Origin: Planktotalea sp. | Lineage (GTDB): Bacteria > Pseudomonadota > Alphaproteobacteria > Rhodobacterales > Rhodobacteraceae | DNA length: 64,000 nt | NCBI RefSeq assembly: GCF_018607965.1 | Contig: NZ_JABBAM010000065.1 | Coordinates: 16,922-80,921 of the forward strand | Direction: 5' to 3' | Part shown: positions 28,581 to 34,553 of the stretch, piece by piece | How the letters are laid out: each line of letters begins with the position of its first letter | Numbering within the stretch: the first letter of the stretch is position 1 | Translations under genes and position numbers: made by a program | The notes under the pieces: model-generated | The model's database searches: none | Told to the model about the DNA's origin: nothing | What the model saw: only the letters and a program-made list of their open reading frames with translations

Positions 28581-28666
28581 CACACGAATGATGATGGCGC
28601 TAAAGTGTCTAGTTCTTGAACCTCCCTGTTGGACTTCGGCCGAGCCTCTGAGCTCGGCCTTTTTTT
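28581..28666 (+). ncRNA. Candidate small RNA divergent from yajC
   Basis: CTTGAA-N17-CTAAAT promoter-like element (28546-28574), CCTCCCT at 28621, terminator GGCCGAGC-N6-GCTCGGCC-T7. There is no + strand CDS for the terminator to serve. Confidence 0.5.
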
Positions 28667-28682
28667 ACCAATTCGCTTTGTT

Positions 28683-29372
28683 TTAATCGAAAACCGACAT
28701 GATTTCAGTCAACGGCTTTTTCATTTTAGCAACGCCCGGCACAGTCGCGTCTGGTGCAGGATGTCCAACTGCTAGAATCATCACAGGTTTTTCAGATGCG
28801 GGACGCCCCAAAAGCCCATTCAAAAACTTCATCGGGTTTGGTGTATGCGTGAGGCAGGTCAAACCTGCGTGATGCAGCGCAGAAATCAAAAATCCCGTCG
28901 CGATGCCGACGCTTTCGGGCACATAGTAATTCTTGTTTCGCGTGCCATCCTCAAATTCGCCCCACCGTTGCGCAAAGATAATGATCAGCCAAGGCGCAAT
29001 ATCAAGATGTGGTTTGCTGGCGTCCGTGCCAACCGGCTCAAGCGCTTTGATCCATTCATCGCCAGCCCCGCCTGCATAGAATTTCTCTTCTTCTTCAGCC
29101 GCGAGGCGAATTTGATGTTTCACATCCGCGCTAGAGATCGCAACAAAATGCCAAGGCTGGTGGTTCGCACCAGACGGTGCAGATCCTGCCGCTGTAATCG
29201 CCGCATCAATGACCACTTGAGGAACCGCTGTAGGCGCGAAATCACGCACAGAATGACGCTTACGCATGAATTCCAAATGCGCTGCGACTGCTTTGATGCT
29301 GTCGTGCGCAGACATTTCCACGCGATCAAGCAGTTGAACGGCGCTGTAGTCCAGTTTTTCTTTAGCGAACAC
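28683..29372 (-). CDS. Nitroreductase-fold iodotyrosine deiodinase (IYD)-like flavoprotein
   Basis: RKRHSVRDF, APSGANHQPWHF, EEEEKFY, KPHLDIAP, YYVPESVGIA and LTHTP motifs. Confidence 0.8.
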   Translation of the reverse strand: MFAKEKLDYSAVQLLDRVEMSAHDSIKAVAAHLEFMRKRHSVRDFAPTAVPQVVIDAAITAAGSAPSGANHQPWHFVAISSADVKHQIRLAAEEEEKFYAGGAGDEWIKALEPVGTDASKPHLDIAPWLIIIFAQRWGEFEDGTRNKNYYVPESVGIATGFLISALHHAGLTCLTHTPNPMKFLNGLLGRPASEKPVMILAVGHPAPDATVPGVAKMKKPLTEIMSVFD

Positions 29373-30132
29373 GTTCGTTTCCTTTGCTCAGCGTTGTTTT
29401 CCACAGCTGTTCATTGCGGATTGGCATTTTCGTTCCCGCAAGCGCGAACATATGCCAGAAGAAGGCTTGGTTTGACGACAATGCAGGCTTGTTGCACCCC
29501 GCCTCAACGTCTTTCAAGATCGAGAACGTGCGCAGGTTGGTGCAACTCATGAACACAGCCTCTGCGCCCGTGTCTTTGCCCAGCTTTATGGCCGCATCGC
29601 GGGTCGAGGATGGATCAATCCGCGCGACTTTCGTCTCGACCGGTTCATTGAACGTGCCAAACACGGGCGTGTCGATCCCATTGGCTGACAGAGCCGTTCG
29701 CAAACTCTCGCTCACCTCTTCCGCGTAGGGGGTCAGCAAGGCCAGCTTGCTGATGCCAACCGACGTGCAGGCCGCAATCAAAGCGCTGACGGGGTTCGTG
29801 ACATGTACCGTTTTGCATCCACCGCTGACCAATTGCTCCACACGTTCAGACCCGATGACACTAGAGGCAGACGTGCATCCGTAGCCCACTACGTCAAAAT
29901 CTACGGTCTTTGGCAGCAAGCCTGCCGCGCGCGGCAAGTCCGCCTCCATCGCGGACAGGCTTTCATTGGACACCTCAGATGCGCTTGGAATGCGCGACAC
30001 AAAGGCCGCGACGTCCTTGTTTGGCAGAACCTGACGCAATTCAGATTCCATCGTTTCGTCCGATTGCAGAACGATCAGCCCAAGGCGTCCGTCTGTGCCA
30101 ATCTGCGGGGCTAATGTGTAGGGTAGGCTCAT
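29362..30132 (-). CDS. Asp/Glu racemase / maleate isomerase family protein (EutA-like)
   Basis: GLIVLQSDETME, GYGCTSAS and FMSCTNLR two-Cys motifs. Confidence 0.85.
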   Translation of the reverse strand: MSLPYTLAPQIGTDGRLGLIVLQSDETMESELRQVLPNKDVAAFVSRIPSASEVSNESLSAMEADLPRAAGLLPKTVDFDVVGYGCTSASSVIGSERVEQLVSGGCKTVHVTNPVSALIAACTSVGISKLALLTPYAEEVSESLRTALSANGIDTPVFGTFNEPVETKVARIDPSSTRDAAIKLGKDTGAEAVFMSCTNLRTFSILKDVEAGCNKPALSSNQAFFWHMFALAGTKMPIRNEQLWKTTLSKGNERVR

Positions 30133-31271
30133 CCGTCCAACCTGACCATTTGCTCTGGTGGTTTGGGCGACAGCCGTTCCCAGCCCGTCGCGGTGACAAC
30201 ATAATCATCTTCATGCACAATCAAGCCTGCACCACCAGACACGGACACACCCGGTTCAAGCGTGATCACCATGCCCTCCTCCAGCACCGTGTGATCATCC
30301 GCGGTAAACGACAGGCCCTCAGTCAGTTGCAAACCCAAGCCATGCCCTAAACGCCCCGCGCTTTGGCCACCTGCCCCGCCCGTGCAGATCTTGTCCATCG
30401 CATAGAACACATCCGACGCCGTGTTACCGGCCCTCAAAGCGCCCTCGCCTGCTTGCATAGCTATCATCAGATTTTCATAAGCGCGCGTTGCGGCATCGCT
30501 TGGCTTTCCAACTGCGAAATTGCGGTCAAAGTCGCTAAAATAGCCGTCTTTGATAACGCCTGTATCCAGCATCAGAATGTCACCAACTTCTAAAGGCGCG
30601 TCGCTTGCTGGGGAAATCACATCATCGTAGCCATCCGCGCCCGCACCGCCCGCCAAATACGGCACCCAATCTGCGCCTTCCTCAAGGCACAACATTTGAA
30701 AACCGCGAAACACTGACGACAACGGCGTTCGTGCGCGCGCAATTTCAGGCAAGAGCGCAAACGCACCGCCAGCAATCTGACAGGCTGCGCGGATCGCGTC
30801 GACCTCTGCGGGGCTTTTCACCATACGCGCGGCGCGCATGACGCCGTGATCTGTGCTGATCGTCACGTCACCCGACAACCGCATCCAATCGCCCAGAGGC
30901 ATCCTCAGATGGCTCTCGATTCCGAAGGGCGTGCCAATAGGATCACTGCCAGCGACGTCACGCAACGTGCTCGTCAAAAGGGAAACCCCATCGTCAGAAT
31001 AGTTTGGTGCAGACCATGTGCGGATATCCTCCACCACGGTTTGCGCCATCAAAGCAGCGCCGATCGAGGGGATCACTGCAATTGGCAGACCCTTTGCTGG
31101 CAACACCAGAAACCAAGGGCGCGTCGGGCTTTCCCAGAACCGCGTCAGATAGCCCGTCAGATAGCGGATGTCGGCCTCTTGCGTCAGCAAAAGTGCGCCA
31201 AGCCCGTGTGCGGCCATGCGGGTCTGCACGCCTTTGATACGCGTCAGGTACTCGCAGCGTTCGAACATCAT
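30129..31271 (-). CDS. M24 family metallo-hydrolase (Xaa-Pro peptidase / DoeA-EutD-like)
   Basis: LDTG..SDFDR, GHGLG, TLEPG and HEDD pita-bread metal ligands. Confidence 0.85.
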   Translation of the reverse strand: MMFERCEYLTRIKGVQTRMAAHGLGALLLTQEADIRYLTGYLTRFWESPTRPWFLVLPAKGLPIAVIPSIGAALMAQTVVEDIRTWSAPNYSDDGVSLLTSTLRDVAGSDPIGTPFGIESHLRMPLGDWMRLSGDVTISTDHGVMRAARMVKSPAEVDAIRAACQIAGGAFALLPEIARARTPLSSVFRGFQMLCLEEGADWVPYLAGGAGADGYDDVISPASDAPLEVGDILMLDTGVIKDGYFSDFDRNFAVGKPSDAATRAYENLMIAMQAGEGALRAGNTASDVFYAMDKICTGGAGGQSAGRLGHGLGLQLTEGLSFTADDHTVLEEGMVITLEPGVSVSGGAGLIVHEDDYVVTATGWERLSPKPPEQMVRLDG

Positions 31272-32254
31272 TCACCCTCGCTGAGGATGCAGAGAACTTT
31301 TGCGCCCTCAGGTAAGTCGCTCAATAAAGCAGCCGTAATACCAGCGGACCCTGACGTGCTGGACGCCAAGCCAAGTGCTGCGAGTTTCGGCAAGGTCGCG
31401 AATGCTTCTTCCTCGGTTATCAGCGTAATGGAATCTGTATCACGAGACAGACCTTTCAAGGCAATCAAAGACGCTTCTTTACAATCAAGGCGACCCATGT
31501 CCGAGACGGGCCCAGTGGACACAGCAAAACCACCTGCCTGAATGGACTCGAAAATCGCGGGGGCGAATTCGGGTTCAACCACCGTAATATGAGGTTCATC
31601 CCCCCAAACATCACGGAACAAGGCAGCGCATGCCCCAGCCAACCCACCAACACCCGCTTGCAAGAATATATGCGTGGGCGCGTCCATCTGTTCAGTGCAC
31701 TCAGCTGCCATTGCGAGGTATCCCTCCATCAAACGGTGCGGCAAATCGAAATATCCATCCCAAGAACTGTCTGACAATAAGGTCCAGCCATTCGCAGCCG
31801 CCGCAGCTTGGGCACCCGCCATGCTGGCCTCATAATCATCACCCTCGATAACCACGTCTGCGCCTTTTTCACGCAGTCGATCTGCGAAATCACTCGGTAC
31901 AGTCTTGGCCAAATAGATCACCGCCTTTGCGCCGAACACTTTAGCGCCCGCCGCGACCGACATCCCATGATTGCCAGCACTCGCAGTGATATATGTGCGC
32001 CCTTCCAATGAACCCAGCTGTGCCTCATGCGCGATCACATAGGCCGCGCCAAGCGCTTTGAAACTACCCAAACCCATGCGTCCGCGTTCGTCTTTGATGT
32101 GCAGTGCAAGCGCTTGAACCATTGGCGTGACCCCATGCGACGGACAACGATCCAACAAGGCACGTGGCGCTGCGGCATCCACAGAGGGCGCAGGCACGGC
32201 TTCAAATCCAGTCTTAAATCCAGTGCCGCGATAAGGGTTAACGATGGTGCGCAT
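31268..32254 (-). CDS. PLP-dependent ammonia-lyase (diaminopropionate ammonia-lyase-like, fold type II)
   Basis: GLGSFKALG PLP lysine; ASAGNHG and QAGVGG motifs. Confidence 0.85.
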   Translation of the reverse strand: MRTIVNPYRGTGFKTGFEAVPAPSVDAAAPRALLDRCPSHGVTPMVQALALHIKDERGRMGLGSFKALGAAYVIAHEAQLGSLEGRTYITASAGNHGMSVAAGAKVFGAKAVIYLAKTVPSDFADRLREKGADVVIEGDDYEASMAGAQAAAAANGWTLLSDSSWDGYFDLPHRLMEGYLAMAAECTEQMDAPTHIFLQAGVGGLAGACAALFRDVWGDEPHITVVEPEFAPAIFESIQAGGFAVSTGPVSDMGRLDCKEASLIALKGLSRDTDSITLITEEEAFATLPKLAALGLASSTSGSAGITAALLSDLPEGAKVLCILSEGE

Positions 32255-32393
32255 ATTAAATCTCCCAATTTGCGCCCACATCAATCCAAAACCCAAGACA
32301 GGTCAACGCGGGAAATGAACATCCTGTCGCATTGCCCCTAGGACGCTTTGTCAGTATGAGACGCGCAACTTCACGTTTTGGGGACCAAACTGG

Positions 32394-34553
32394 ATGCAAG
32401 AACCTGCCATTACCACTGATCTGATCGCCTCGCACGGGCTAAGCGCTGACGAATATCAAGTTATTCTAGGGCTGATTGGCCGCGAGCCATCCTACACAGA
32501 ACTTGGCATTTTTTCGGCCATGTGGAACGAACATTGCTCTTATAAGTCCTCCAAAAAATGGCTGCGCACACTTCCTACGCAGGGCCCTCAGGTCATTTGC
32601 GGCCCCGGCGAAAACGCAGGTATTGTTGATATTGGCGACGGTCAAGCGGTTGTTTTCAAAATGGAAAGCCACAACCACCCCTCTTATATCGAACCCTATC
32701 AAGGTGCGGCGACGGGCGTTGGAGGCATCTTGCGCGATGTCTTCACGATGGGCGCGCGTCCAATTGCGGCGATGAATTCGCTTAGCTTTGGCGAGGTATC
32801 CCACCACAAAACGCGCCAGCTTGTGAACGGCGTCGTTGAGGGCGTTGGTGGTTACGGCAACTGCTTTGGTGTTCCCACGGTGGGAGGTGAAGTGCGCTTT
32901 GATCCGGCCTACAATGGCAACTGCCTTGTGAACGCGTTCGCGGCGGGTCTCGCGGATACGGACAAGATTTTTTACTCGGCGGCCTCAGGTATTGGCATGC
33001 CTGTTGTTTATCTGGGTGCGAAAACGGGTCGTGACGGTGTTGGCGGCGCGACGATGGCGTCTGCGGAATTTGATGACACGATTGAAGAAAAGCGCCCCAC
33101 TGTTCAGGTCGGTGATCCATTCACCGAAAAGCGCCTGATGGAAGCCACGCTAGCGCTGATGCAAACGGGCGCTGTGATTTCTATTCAGGACATGGGCGCG
33201 GCTGGTCTGACCTGTTCTGCGGTTGAAATGGGCGACAAGGGTGGCCTTGGTGTGCGCCTTGATCTGGAACGCGTACCCGTGCGTGAAACCAACATGACTG
33301 CCTATGAAATGATGCTGTCTGAGTCTCAGGAACGCATGTTGATGGTTCTGAAACCCGAGCTGGAAGCAGAAGCGAAAGCCGTGTTCGACAAATGGGACCT
33401 TGATTTCGCAATCGTGGGTGAAACAATTGAAGAAGATCGCTTTCTCATCATGCACAACGGCAAAATGAAGGCTGATTTGCCCTTGAGCAAACTCGCGTCT
33501 TCCGCACCTGAGTATGATCGCCCATGGGTGGCAACACCTGCGGCTGATCCACTGGAAGATGTCCCACAGATTGACCCAATTGACGGATTGAAGGCGCTGC
33601 TTTCAACGGCCAACTATGCGTCAAAACGCTGGGTGTTCGAACAATATGATGCGCAAGTTATGGGTGACACGATCCGTATTCCCGGTGCTGGCGCTGGTAT
33701 CGTGCGTGTGCACGGTACACCTAAGGCGCTGGCATTCACATCCGATGTGACCCCGCGCTATGTGATGGCGAACCCTGTTGAGGGTGGGAAACAGGCCGTT
33801 GCCGAAGCGTACCGTAACCTCACAGCTGTGGGCGCGAAGCCCTTGGCGACAACAGACAATATGAATTTCGGCAATCCTGAAAAGCCAGAAATCATGGGCC
33901 AGTTCGTTGGCGCAATCCAAGGCATCGGCGAAGCGGTAACTGCGCTAGATATGCCTATCGTGTCGGGCAACGTGTCGCTTTACAATGAAACCGATGGCAC
34001 AGGCATTTTGCCAACGCCGACAATTGGTGCCGTTGGGTTGCTGAACTCGGAAGACGAATTGATTAACGCAGATGTACGCGAGGGTCATGTTGCGATCCTT
34101 GTGGGTGTGACCGAGGGCCATCTTGGCCAATCCGCTTTGCTTAACGAAGTGTTCAACCGCACTGACGGTGACGCGCCACATGTGGATCTGGCAGCAGAAG
34201 TAAAGAACGGCGATTTCATCCGCGCCAACCGCGACTGGATCAAAGCCTGTACAGATTTGTCTGACGGTGGTCTTGCGCTGGCAGCCTACGAAATGGCAGC
34301 AACCGCTGACGTAGGTGTCACACTTGATAGCGGCGATACGCCAGACTTGTTCGGCGAAGACCAAGCGCGCTACTTGATTGCCTGCAATTTCGACCAAGCC
34401 GAAGCGCTGATGATTGCAGCGGGTCAAGCAGGCGTCACATTGGCGTTTGTTGGCAAGTTCGGCGGCGAGGACGTCACGATGGGTGGATCATCTGCGCCTT
34501 TGGCCGAGTTGAAAGCAATGTCAGAGAGCGTATTTCCAACGCTCTTTTCATAA
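32394..34553 (+). CDS. purL: Phosphoribosylformylglycinamidine synthase subunit PurL
   Basis: [17 protein letters not shown] and GNVSLYNE motifs. Confidence 0.98.

Follow-up and report, generated by a model that had tools for sequence, protein, structure and literature searches.

The locus considered here raises the question of which compound is degraded by a run of four tightly packed minus-strand genes, and whether all four serve the same pathway. The genes lie in a 64,000-nt stretch of the genome of Planktotalea sp. (Rhodobacteraceae; assembly GCF_018607965.1, contig NZ_JABBAM010000065.1, positions 16,922 to 80,921), called the window below, as open reading frames (ORFs) at 31268–32296, 30129–31271, 29362–30132 and 28683–29372. 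In the order of transcription they encode a pyridoxal 5'-phosphate (PLP)-dependent lyase of the diaminopropionate ammonia-lyase (DAPAL) family, an M24 metallohydrolase, a protein resembling EutA of hydroxyectoine catabolism and a flavoprotein of the iodotyrosine deiodinase (IYD) clade. The answer proposed here, with about even confidence, is that the first three genes (the trio) would form a conserved catabolic module for an imported ectoine-type or related solute, and that in Planktotalea the IYD gene has joined the 3' end of this module and is likely independent of it. The features are:

31268..32254, minus strand: PLP-dependent beta-eliminating lyase, a variant of the DAPAL family (PF00291, NF006058, structure matches)
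30129..31271, minus strand: M24B metallohydrolase of the prolidase/PepE type, with a Creatinase_N domain (PF00557, PF01321, structure matches)
29362..30132, minus strand: EutA-like protein of the Asp/Glu racemase/maleate isomerase/Amdase superfamily, with two catalytic cysteines (TIGR02990, PF17645, alignment to 4fq7)
28683..29372, minus strand: flavin mononucleotide (FMN) flavoprotein of the IYD clade (PF00881, solved IYD structures)
32255..32393, no strand assigned: divergent intergenic region between the PLP gene and purL, the presumed operon promoter (139-nt gap between divergent genes)

The likely true start of the PLP gene is the ATG at 32254, 8 bases behind GGGAGA, since it agrees with the N-terminus conserved among relatives. 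According to the ORF coordinates, stop and start codons share 4 nt at both the PLP/M24 (31268–31271) and the M24/EutA-like (30129–30132) junctions, and the EutA-like/IYD junction (29362–29372) reads as an 11-nt overlap of stop and start codons, GTGTTCGCTAA. No intrinsic terminator was found between the four operon genes, and an Rfam scan gave no riboswitch match upstream of the operon at E ≤ 1 (small RNA (sRNA)-like matches lie downstream only). Nine other Planktotalea genomes keep the order olsA-purL / PLP-M24-EutA-like-IYD-yajC-secDF at 75–84% protein identity; there the IYD gene begins with ATG behind an AAGGA-type ribosome-binding site of its own, and in the window it starts with GTG. Because the same four genes are conserved intact across the genus, they are real genes, and the coordinates and these nine genomes confirm the four minus-strand genes with overlapping junctions described in an earlier note on this DNA.

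The trio was followed in two sets: the 80 closest PLP loci, out of more than 594 related loci in all sequenced species, and a sample of 200 Rhodobacteraceae genera, represented by one genome each, whose linkage statistics are not phylogenetically corrected. Linkage was counted from tblastn matches rather than from ORF clusters because a simple ORF caller mis-called genes in G+C-rich loci. In 79 of the 80 loci the PLP gene is followed immediately by the M24 gene, and in half of the 80 (40/80) an EutA-like gene comes next. A PLP orthologue is present in 78 of the 200 genera (39%), and the PLP-M24 pair, with or without the EutA-like gene, occurs in seven other alphaproteobacterial families as well. 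Housekeeping genes surround most trio loci: in 41 of the 80, a divergent purL precedes the PLP gene, and dnaA, queA-tgt and others are neighbours in one or a few loci each. A large share of the small, nitrogen-rich organic matter that phytoplankton release passes through bacteria of the Roseobacter group, and a module found in about two-fifths of the sampled genera, with catalytic residues that are intact and invariant, is both widespread and uncharacterised; literature searches on this enzyme combination, on bacterial IYD neighbourhoods and on DAPAL in roseobacters returned nothing useful.

The trio is co-operonic with a PotA-type ATP-binding cassette (ABC) importer in about one-tenth of the PLP-positive genera. 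The contiguous order PLP-M24-EutA-like-PotA-type ATPase-SBP_bac_8-permease-permease was observed in five loci of Ruegeria and related bacteria, as well as in genomes G344, G348, G436, G505 and G512, and again in G353, whose contig ends inside the binding-protein gene; the same importer adjoins the trio in another orientation in G078, G379 and G519. When coordinates were compared by hand, the gene for the importer binding protein proved to be no more than 10 kb from the PLP gene in 7–8 of the 78 genera, versus about 0.4 expected by chance (a rough estimate). In this comparison an EutD-like gene is found within the same distance of it in about 29 genera, and the canonical EutD genes with the highest scores (above about 690 bits) show no such linkage. 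Solved relatives of this binding protein bind gamma-aminobutyric acid (GABA), mannopine and agropine, the nearest being 8jv1, for which no ligand was found in a literature search on PDB entries 8jv1–4. Genes for a further M24 paralogue (M24b), a DUF1989 protein and an agmatinase-family protein are also present near the importer-linked trios.

Trios additionally stand beside genes of the ectoine type. Nine loci have an EutD-like gene and an ArgE-type M20 deacylase gene within 10 kb of the trio, and the EutD-like proteins that were scored reach about 575–601 bits against a cut-off of 613. An island at locus L157 carries a bona fide EutB (431 vs 413 bits), an EutC-type cyclodeaminase (462 vs 408) and a class III aminotransferase, and homologues of all three (66–83% identity) are found at L154 and L159, and an operon from another family (G296) reads PLP-M24-EutA-like-EutD-EutE, with EutD at 756 bits (cut-off 613) and EutE at 559 bits (cut-off 403). 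EutD-like matches were obtained in 119 of the 200 Rhodobacteraceae genera (36 pass the EutD cut-off), and they are more frequent in PLP-positive genera (60/78) than in the others (59/122; Fisher p = 6e-5, a value which genome size and shared ancestry may inflate). Since the linkage persists although gene order and orientation have been rearranged several times, it speaks for a functional connection of the trio with the PotA-type importer and the EutD-like system. It is this co-operonic importer, together with the proximity of EutD-like/ArgE-like, EutB and EutC genes, that suggests an imported ectoine-type or related solute as the target of the trio, the most likely candidate being a nitrogen-rich, ectoine-related or peptide-like solute. 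The repeated linkage to one importer and to the EutD-like/ArgE-like pair also defines a testable unit (one binding protein and three enzymes), from which a so far overlooked marine solute or a second route for compounds of the hydroxyectoine type could emerge. As a separate observation, the EutD-like protein in the loci read (L116, L154–L159) is paired with the ArgE-type M20 deacylase instead of EutE, and this EutD-like/M20 set looks like an uncharacterised second ectoine-type catabolic system.

Given such neighbours, the trio might be taken for divergent but true eutB, eutD and eutA genes, degrading ectoine or 5-hydroxyectoine by the known route. The eutABCDE genes of Ruegeria pomeroyi and Sinorhizobium meliloti bring the same three superfamilies together (a fold-type II PLP enzyme, an M24 protein and an EutA-type protein), and homologous trios elsewhere are physically beside EutB, EutC, EutD or EutD-like, and EutE genes (PMC5924519, PMC8739950, for the eut genes). 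For EutA, inversion of a stereocentre before the dehydratase step of EutB has been proposed (PMC5924519); which steps EutABC exactly carry out in hydroxyectoine catabolism is still unknown (PMC8739950), and juxtaposed eutD and eutE are the criterion for an ectoine catabolic cluster in Mais et al. 2020, as described in PMC8739950. The parallel with EutB, EutD and EutA drawn in the earlier note holds at the level of superfamily, and weak matches to the three Eut models were indeed obtained; all of them, however, fall far below the curated cut-offs. The PLP enzyme scores 65.3 and 54.1 bits against the EutB models NF005680 and TIGR02991 (cut-off 413), the M24 protein 47.7 bits against the EutD model TIGR02993 (cut-off 613), and the EutA-like protein 137.6 bits against TIGR02990 (EutA, cut-off 318), which is its closest named model. 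Moreover, the lyase is DAPAL-like and not threonine-dehydratase-like, the M24 protein has a metal-bearing active site unlike that of EutD, bona fide EutB, EutC-type, EutD and EutE genes share an island or operon with homologous trios, and EutD and EutE were not found in the window genome by profile search. Orthology with bona fide eutABD, which the earlier note had kept in view as an alternative, is contradicted by the Eut scores, the metal site and the coexistence with real Eut genes, and retains next to no probability. On these same grounds the trio is paralogous to, and distinct from, EutB/EutD/EutA, and its presence beside real EutB, EutC-type, EutD and EutE genes points to an additional function rather than to a mere substitute name for theirs.

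The difference from the ectoine enzymes is most evident in the M24 protein. Profile searches assign it to PF00557 and PF01321 (Creatinase_N), and its best solved structures are PepE (4ege) and prolidases. Alignment to prolidase motifs (1wy2, 4ege) shows that all five metal ligands are present (D236, D247, H310, E339 and E354), and they are invariant among 64 orthologues. Conversely, the corresponding residues are E/P/Y/M/T in the EutD of locus L135 (756 bits) and in two EutD-like proteins, and M24b likewise does not carry the five ligands. Because the ligands are kept here and missing from EutD, EutD-like proteins and M24b, the window enzyme is predicted to be a metallopeptidase-type hydrolase, mechanistically unlike ectoine hydrolase. 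It shares the pita-bread fold, the Creatinase_N domain and the five metal ligands with the M24B Xaa-Pro dipeptidases and PepE (4ege, 1pv9, 1wy2), but not the two auxiliary histidines of Xaa-Pro dipeptidases, since T317 takes the place of the prolidase 'HE' His and an ISPA stretch stands at the 'pHG' His (both invariant or nearly so in the 64 orthologues); its score against the PepQ model NF040821 is 91.7 bits, with a cut-off of 630. An enzyme of the metal-dependent peptidase type, and not of the metal-free EutD type, makes the ring-opening of a cyclic amidine advanced in the earlier note less likely than the cleavage of an amide bond beside a free amino group.

The PLP enzyme is of fold-type II (PF00291, 159.7 bits) and its best model is NF006058 (DAPAL), with 214.6 bits against a cut-off of 276; the second DAPAL equivalog, TIGR03528, gives 150.3 bits against 532. 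Its best solved structures are the DAPALs of Salmonella (5ygr) and Escherichia coli (YgeX, 4d9g) which, with the NF006058 score, agree with the impression in the earlier note that the lyase is closer to diaminopropionate ammonia-lyase. In the alignment to the E. coli enzyme, K66 corresponds to the Schiff-base Lys77 and D162 (LLSDSSW) to Asp189, so that the PLP lysine and the Asp189 equivalent are kept, whereas Asp120 is replaced by an alanine, A93, in the motif SAGNHG; the three residues are invariant among 57 orthologues. The window lyase further differs from DAPAL in being about 70 residues shorter, in falling below both equivalog cut-offs and in belonging to a type that is always paired with an M24 hydrolase. 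SAGNHG was present in every M24-linked PLP homologue inspected, while some of the more distant homologues without an M24 neighbour carry TDGNHG (L146, L147, L151) or SSGNHG. Asp120 is reportedly the second catalytic base of E. coli DAPAL beside Lys77, and in serine racemase the equivalent residue is the one that acts on the D isomer. On this analogy, the alanine in place of the second base indicates that the PLP enzyme probably handles a single enantiomer.

The EutA-like protein, which also matches PF17645 (56 bits), was aligned to the maleate isomerase 4fq7, and both catalytic cysteines are matched (C86 and C197), as in members of the superfamily; the two residues are invariant among 38 EutA-like orthologues. 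Homologues with 42–45% identity were also seen elsewhere in Roseovarius and Pelagivirga genomes in unrelated contexts, near AnmK or near PhyH and a dimethylglycine-dehydrogenase-like gene. The second EutA-like paralogue of a Roseovarius genome (L133, from the same genome as L104; 42% identity) is flanked by a dioxygenase of the PhyH family and a DAO-GCV_T protein resembling dimethylglycine dehydrogenase, a further combination to which no function is assigned.

The active sites, considered along with the Eut analogy, suggest an order of reactions. The M24B enzyme, with its intact two-metal site, would cleave an amide bond beside the free alpha-amino group of a small nitrogen-rich solute, freeing an alpha-amino acid with a beta leaving group; the two-cysteine EutA-like enzyme would epimerise this amino acid or its precursor, and the DAPAL-family enzyme would then eliminate the beta-substituent and deaminate the product to a 2-oxo acid and ammonium. 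Part of the route sketched in the earlier note (ring-opening, racemisation and deamination) is thereby retained as hydrolysis, epimerisation and deamination of another nitrogen-rich compound, consistent with the linkage to the importer and to EutD-like, EutB and EutC genes and, in one genome, to EutD and EutE; opening of a cyclic amidine is less likely, given the metal-bearing M24 site. A bolder version, in our judgement quite unlikely, is that the trio and the PotA-type importer constitute a second, undescribed route for ectoine-type solutes, for example 5-hydroxyectoine or a hydroxy- or diamino acid that is N-acylated or peptide-linked. The metallo-M24 enzyme would in that case leave a free alpha-amino group and the DAPAL-like lyase would deaminate directly, bypassing an EutE-type deacetylase and an EutC-type reductase; if this were true, the 39% of sampled Rhodobacteraceae genera with the PLP gene would represent a notable marine sink for ectoine-type solutes.

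The same enzymes could also be read as a general salvage of small peptides or D-amino acids, in which a prolidase-like dipeptidase would free serine, threonine or diaminopropionate, the racemase would convert the D form and the lyase would yield pyruvate or 2-oxobutyrate, the clustering with ectoine genes reflecting merely 'nitrogen islands'. The closeness of the M24 protein to PepE and prolidases, with its two-metal site kept, would agree with such a role, as would the housekeeping context of most loci (purL; dnaA and queA-tgt in single or few) and the SAGNHG of the lyase, which matches the motif of Ser/Thr dehydratases such as IlvA. On the other hand, both auxiliary histidines of Xaa-Pro peptidases are replaced (T317, ISPA), the importer binding protein is of the GABA/opine type and not of the peptide type, and the link of the trio to this one ABC importer, well above the chance expectation, and to EutD-type genes persists through rearrangements, for which reasons general salvage is considered rather unlikely.

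Several observations weigh against the proposal of a module for an ectoine-type or related solute. In most genera, including Planktotalea, the trio lies amid housekeeping genes and has no importer, regulator or EutD-like partner, so that the ectoine-type link rests on about 10% of genera, possibly of shared ancestry. A metallopeptidase-type M24 enzyme would suit a dipeptide as well as an ectoine derivative. The window genome is one in which EutB, EutC, EutD and EutE were not found, so the role of the trio there does not need them. Finally, the translational overlap between the EutA-like and IYD genes would also suit a functional link between them, whereas the proposal treats IYD as a likely independent addition.

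As for the solute module in Planktotalea itself, the window genome assembly is 91% complete, a figure that applies to each of the following searches. Profile searches gave no EutD above the cut-off (best score 64.9 bits, on another contig), no EutA above the cut-off of 318 and no match to TIGR02994 (EutE), hence no juxtaposed eutD-eutE pair, and no close homologue of EutB or EutC was found. An ectoine synthase was not matched either, in a search that had no positive control. Among the window ORFs scanned near the operon neither eutC or eutE nor any transporter or regulator was seen, TRAP and Ehu transporters and EnuR included, and the absence of eutC, eutE, the transporter and the regulator reported in the earlier note is thus supported by the genome searches for the Eut genes and by the scanned ORFs for the transporter and regulator. 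Homologues of M24b (63%), the DUF1989 protein (65%) and the agmatinase-like protein (84%) are encoded on other contigs, as is an importer whose binding protein is 50% identical to the trio-linked one found elsewhere; given this scatter and the low identity of the binding protein, these were not counted as partners of the trio. As the Eut genes were not found and the partner homologues are scattered, the trio therefore acts alone in this genome, which would mean that of the wider importer and Eut-type set the trio alone remains in Planktotalea.

The importer with the 50%-identical binding protein is a paralogous PotA-type system on contig C177 (L160:6219–18123), flanked by a LysR regulator, a gene of the isocitrate/isopropylmalate-dehydrogenase family, a class IV aminotransferase and a gene of the histone-deacetylase family, to which acetylpolyamine amidohydrolases also belong.

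The fourth gene raises a question of its own, since its position in the operon might indicate what the trio degrades. The IYD protein has a nitroreductase fold (PF00881, 74.7 bits), and its best solved structures are the IYD of Haliscomenobacter hydrossis (5ko7; E 7e-59, 202 bits) followed by human and mouse IYD (about 1e-43 to 1e-41). In the alignment to 4ttb and 5ko7, the Glu of EEKFY (four residues before the Tyr), the Tyr and the Lys of SKPH match human E157, Y161 and K182, and the Thr of THTP aligns to T239, the flavin-N5 threonine. In IYDs, the Glu, Tyr and Lys bind the zwitterion of the substrate. The window protein differs from the bacterial and human enzymes in that, by the alignment, one residue is missing from the acidic helix ahead of the Tyr and a His stands in place of human R101; its gene, moreover, closes an operon to which it is unrelated. 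Marine Alphaproteobacteria commonly encode homologues about 70% identical to it, some of which are labelled iodotyrosine deiodinase by one source, JGI; IYD is not known to have an established physiological role in bacteria.

One way to accommodate this gene is to take all four as a single pathway for a halogenated, alga-derived amino-acid derivative from which IYD would remove the halogen, a substrate at which the earlier note had hinted because of the coupling. The 11-nt stop/start overlap, the conserved four-gene order in 10 Planktotalea genomes (that of the window and nine others) and the residues for binding an amino-acid zwitterion would be expected of such a pathway. The linkage does not extend beyond the genus, however: IYD follows the trio in 6 of the 80 closest PLP loci, all six from Planktotalea, and in none of the 74 trio or pair loci outside it, so that in the gene-neighbourhood comparison proposed in the earlier note IYD does not travel with the trio. 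Even within the genus, locus L054 has the trio without an IYD gene, and the 99%-complete genome G006, of which L054 is assumed to be a contig, has at least the EutA-like gene and no IYD match. Additionally, IYD homologues of 55–70% identity in nine other genomes have neighbours unrelated to the trio, those scanned including rubrerythrin-VIT1, a BAAT-type hydrolase, a class I/II aminotransferase, a GFO-family oxidoreductase and a PfkB kinase. Considering this distribution, a joint halogen pathway is very unlikely. As IYD follows the trio in Planktotalea only and has unrelated contexts elsewhere, the gene is a lineage-specific addition at the 3' end of an older operon, and as such it says little about what the trio degrades. 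Its product would dehalogenate free iodo-, bromo- or chlorotyrosine, most likely independently of the trio with which it would share a transcript; the case is a caution that tight coupling in one genus is no evidence of a shared pathway. A further IYD homologue was noticed in the 59%-complete Planktotalea genome G008 (L041), 63% identical and located outside the operon, beside a BAAT-type hydrolase and a class I/II aminotransferase; Planktotalea may thus hold two IYD lineages or two locations.

The operon is flanked by the divergent purL (32394–34553) on one side and by yajC-secD-secF on the other. Between the IYD stop codon and yajC, a plus-strand element at 28585–28667 gives sub-threshold Rfam matches to the Rhodobacter sRNAs SorY (40.9 bits, E 6.5e-6) and SorX (38.9 bits, E 5.4e-7), and it ends in a strong terminator, GGCCGAGCC...GCTCGGCC followed by T7. 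This sRNA-like element and yajC are also kept in L054, the Planktotalea locus without an IYD gene.

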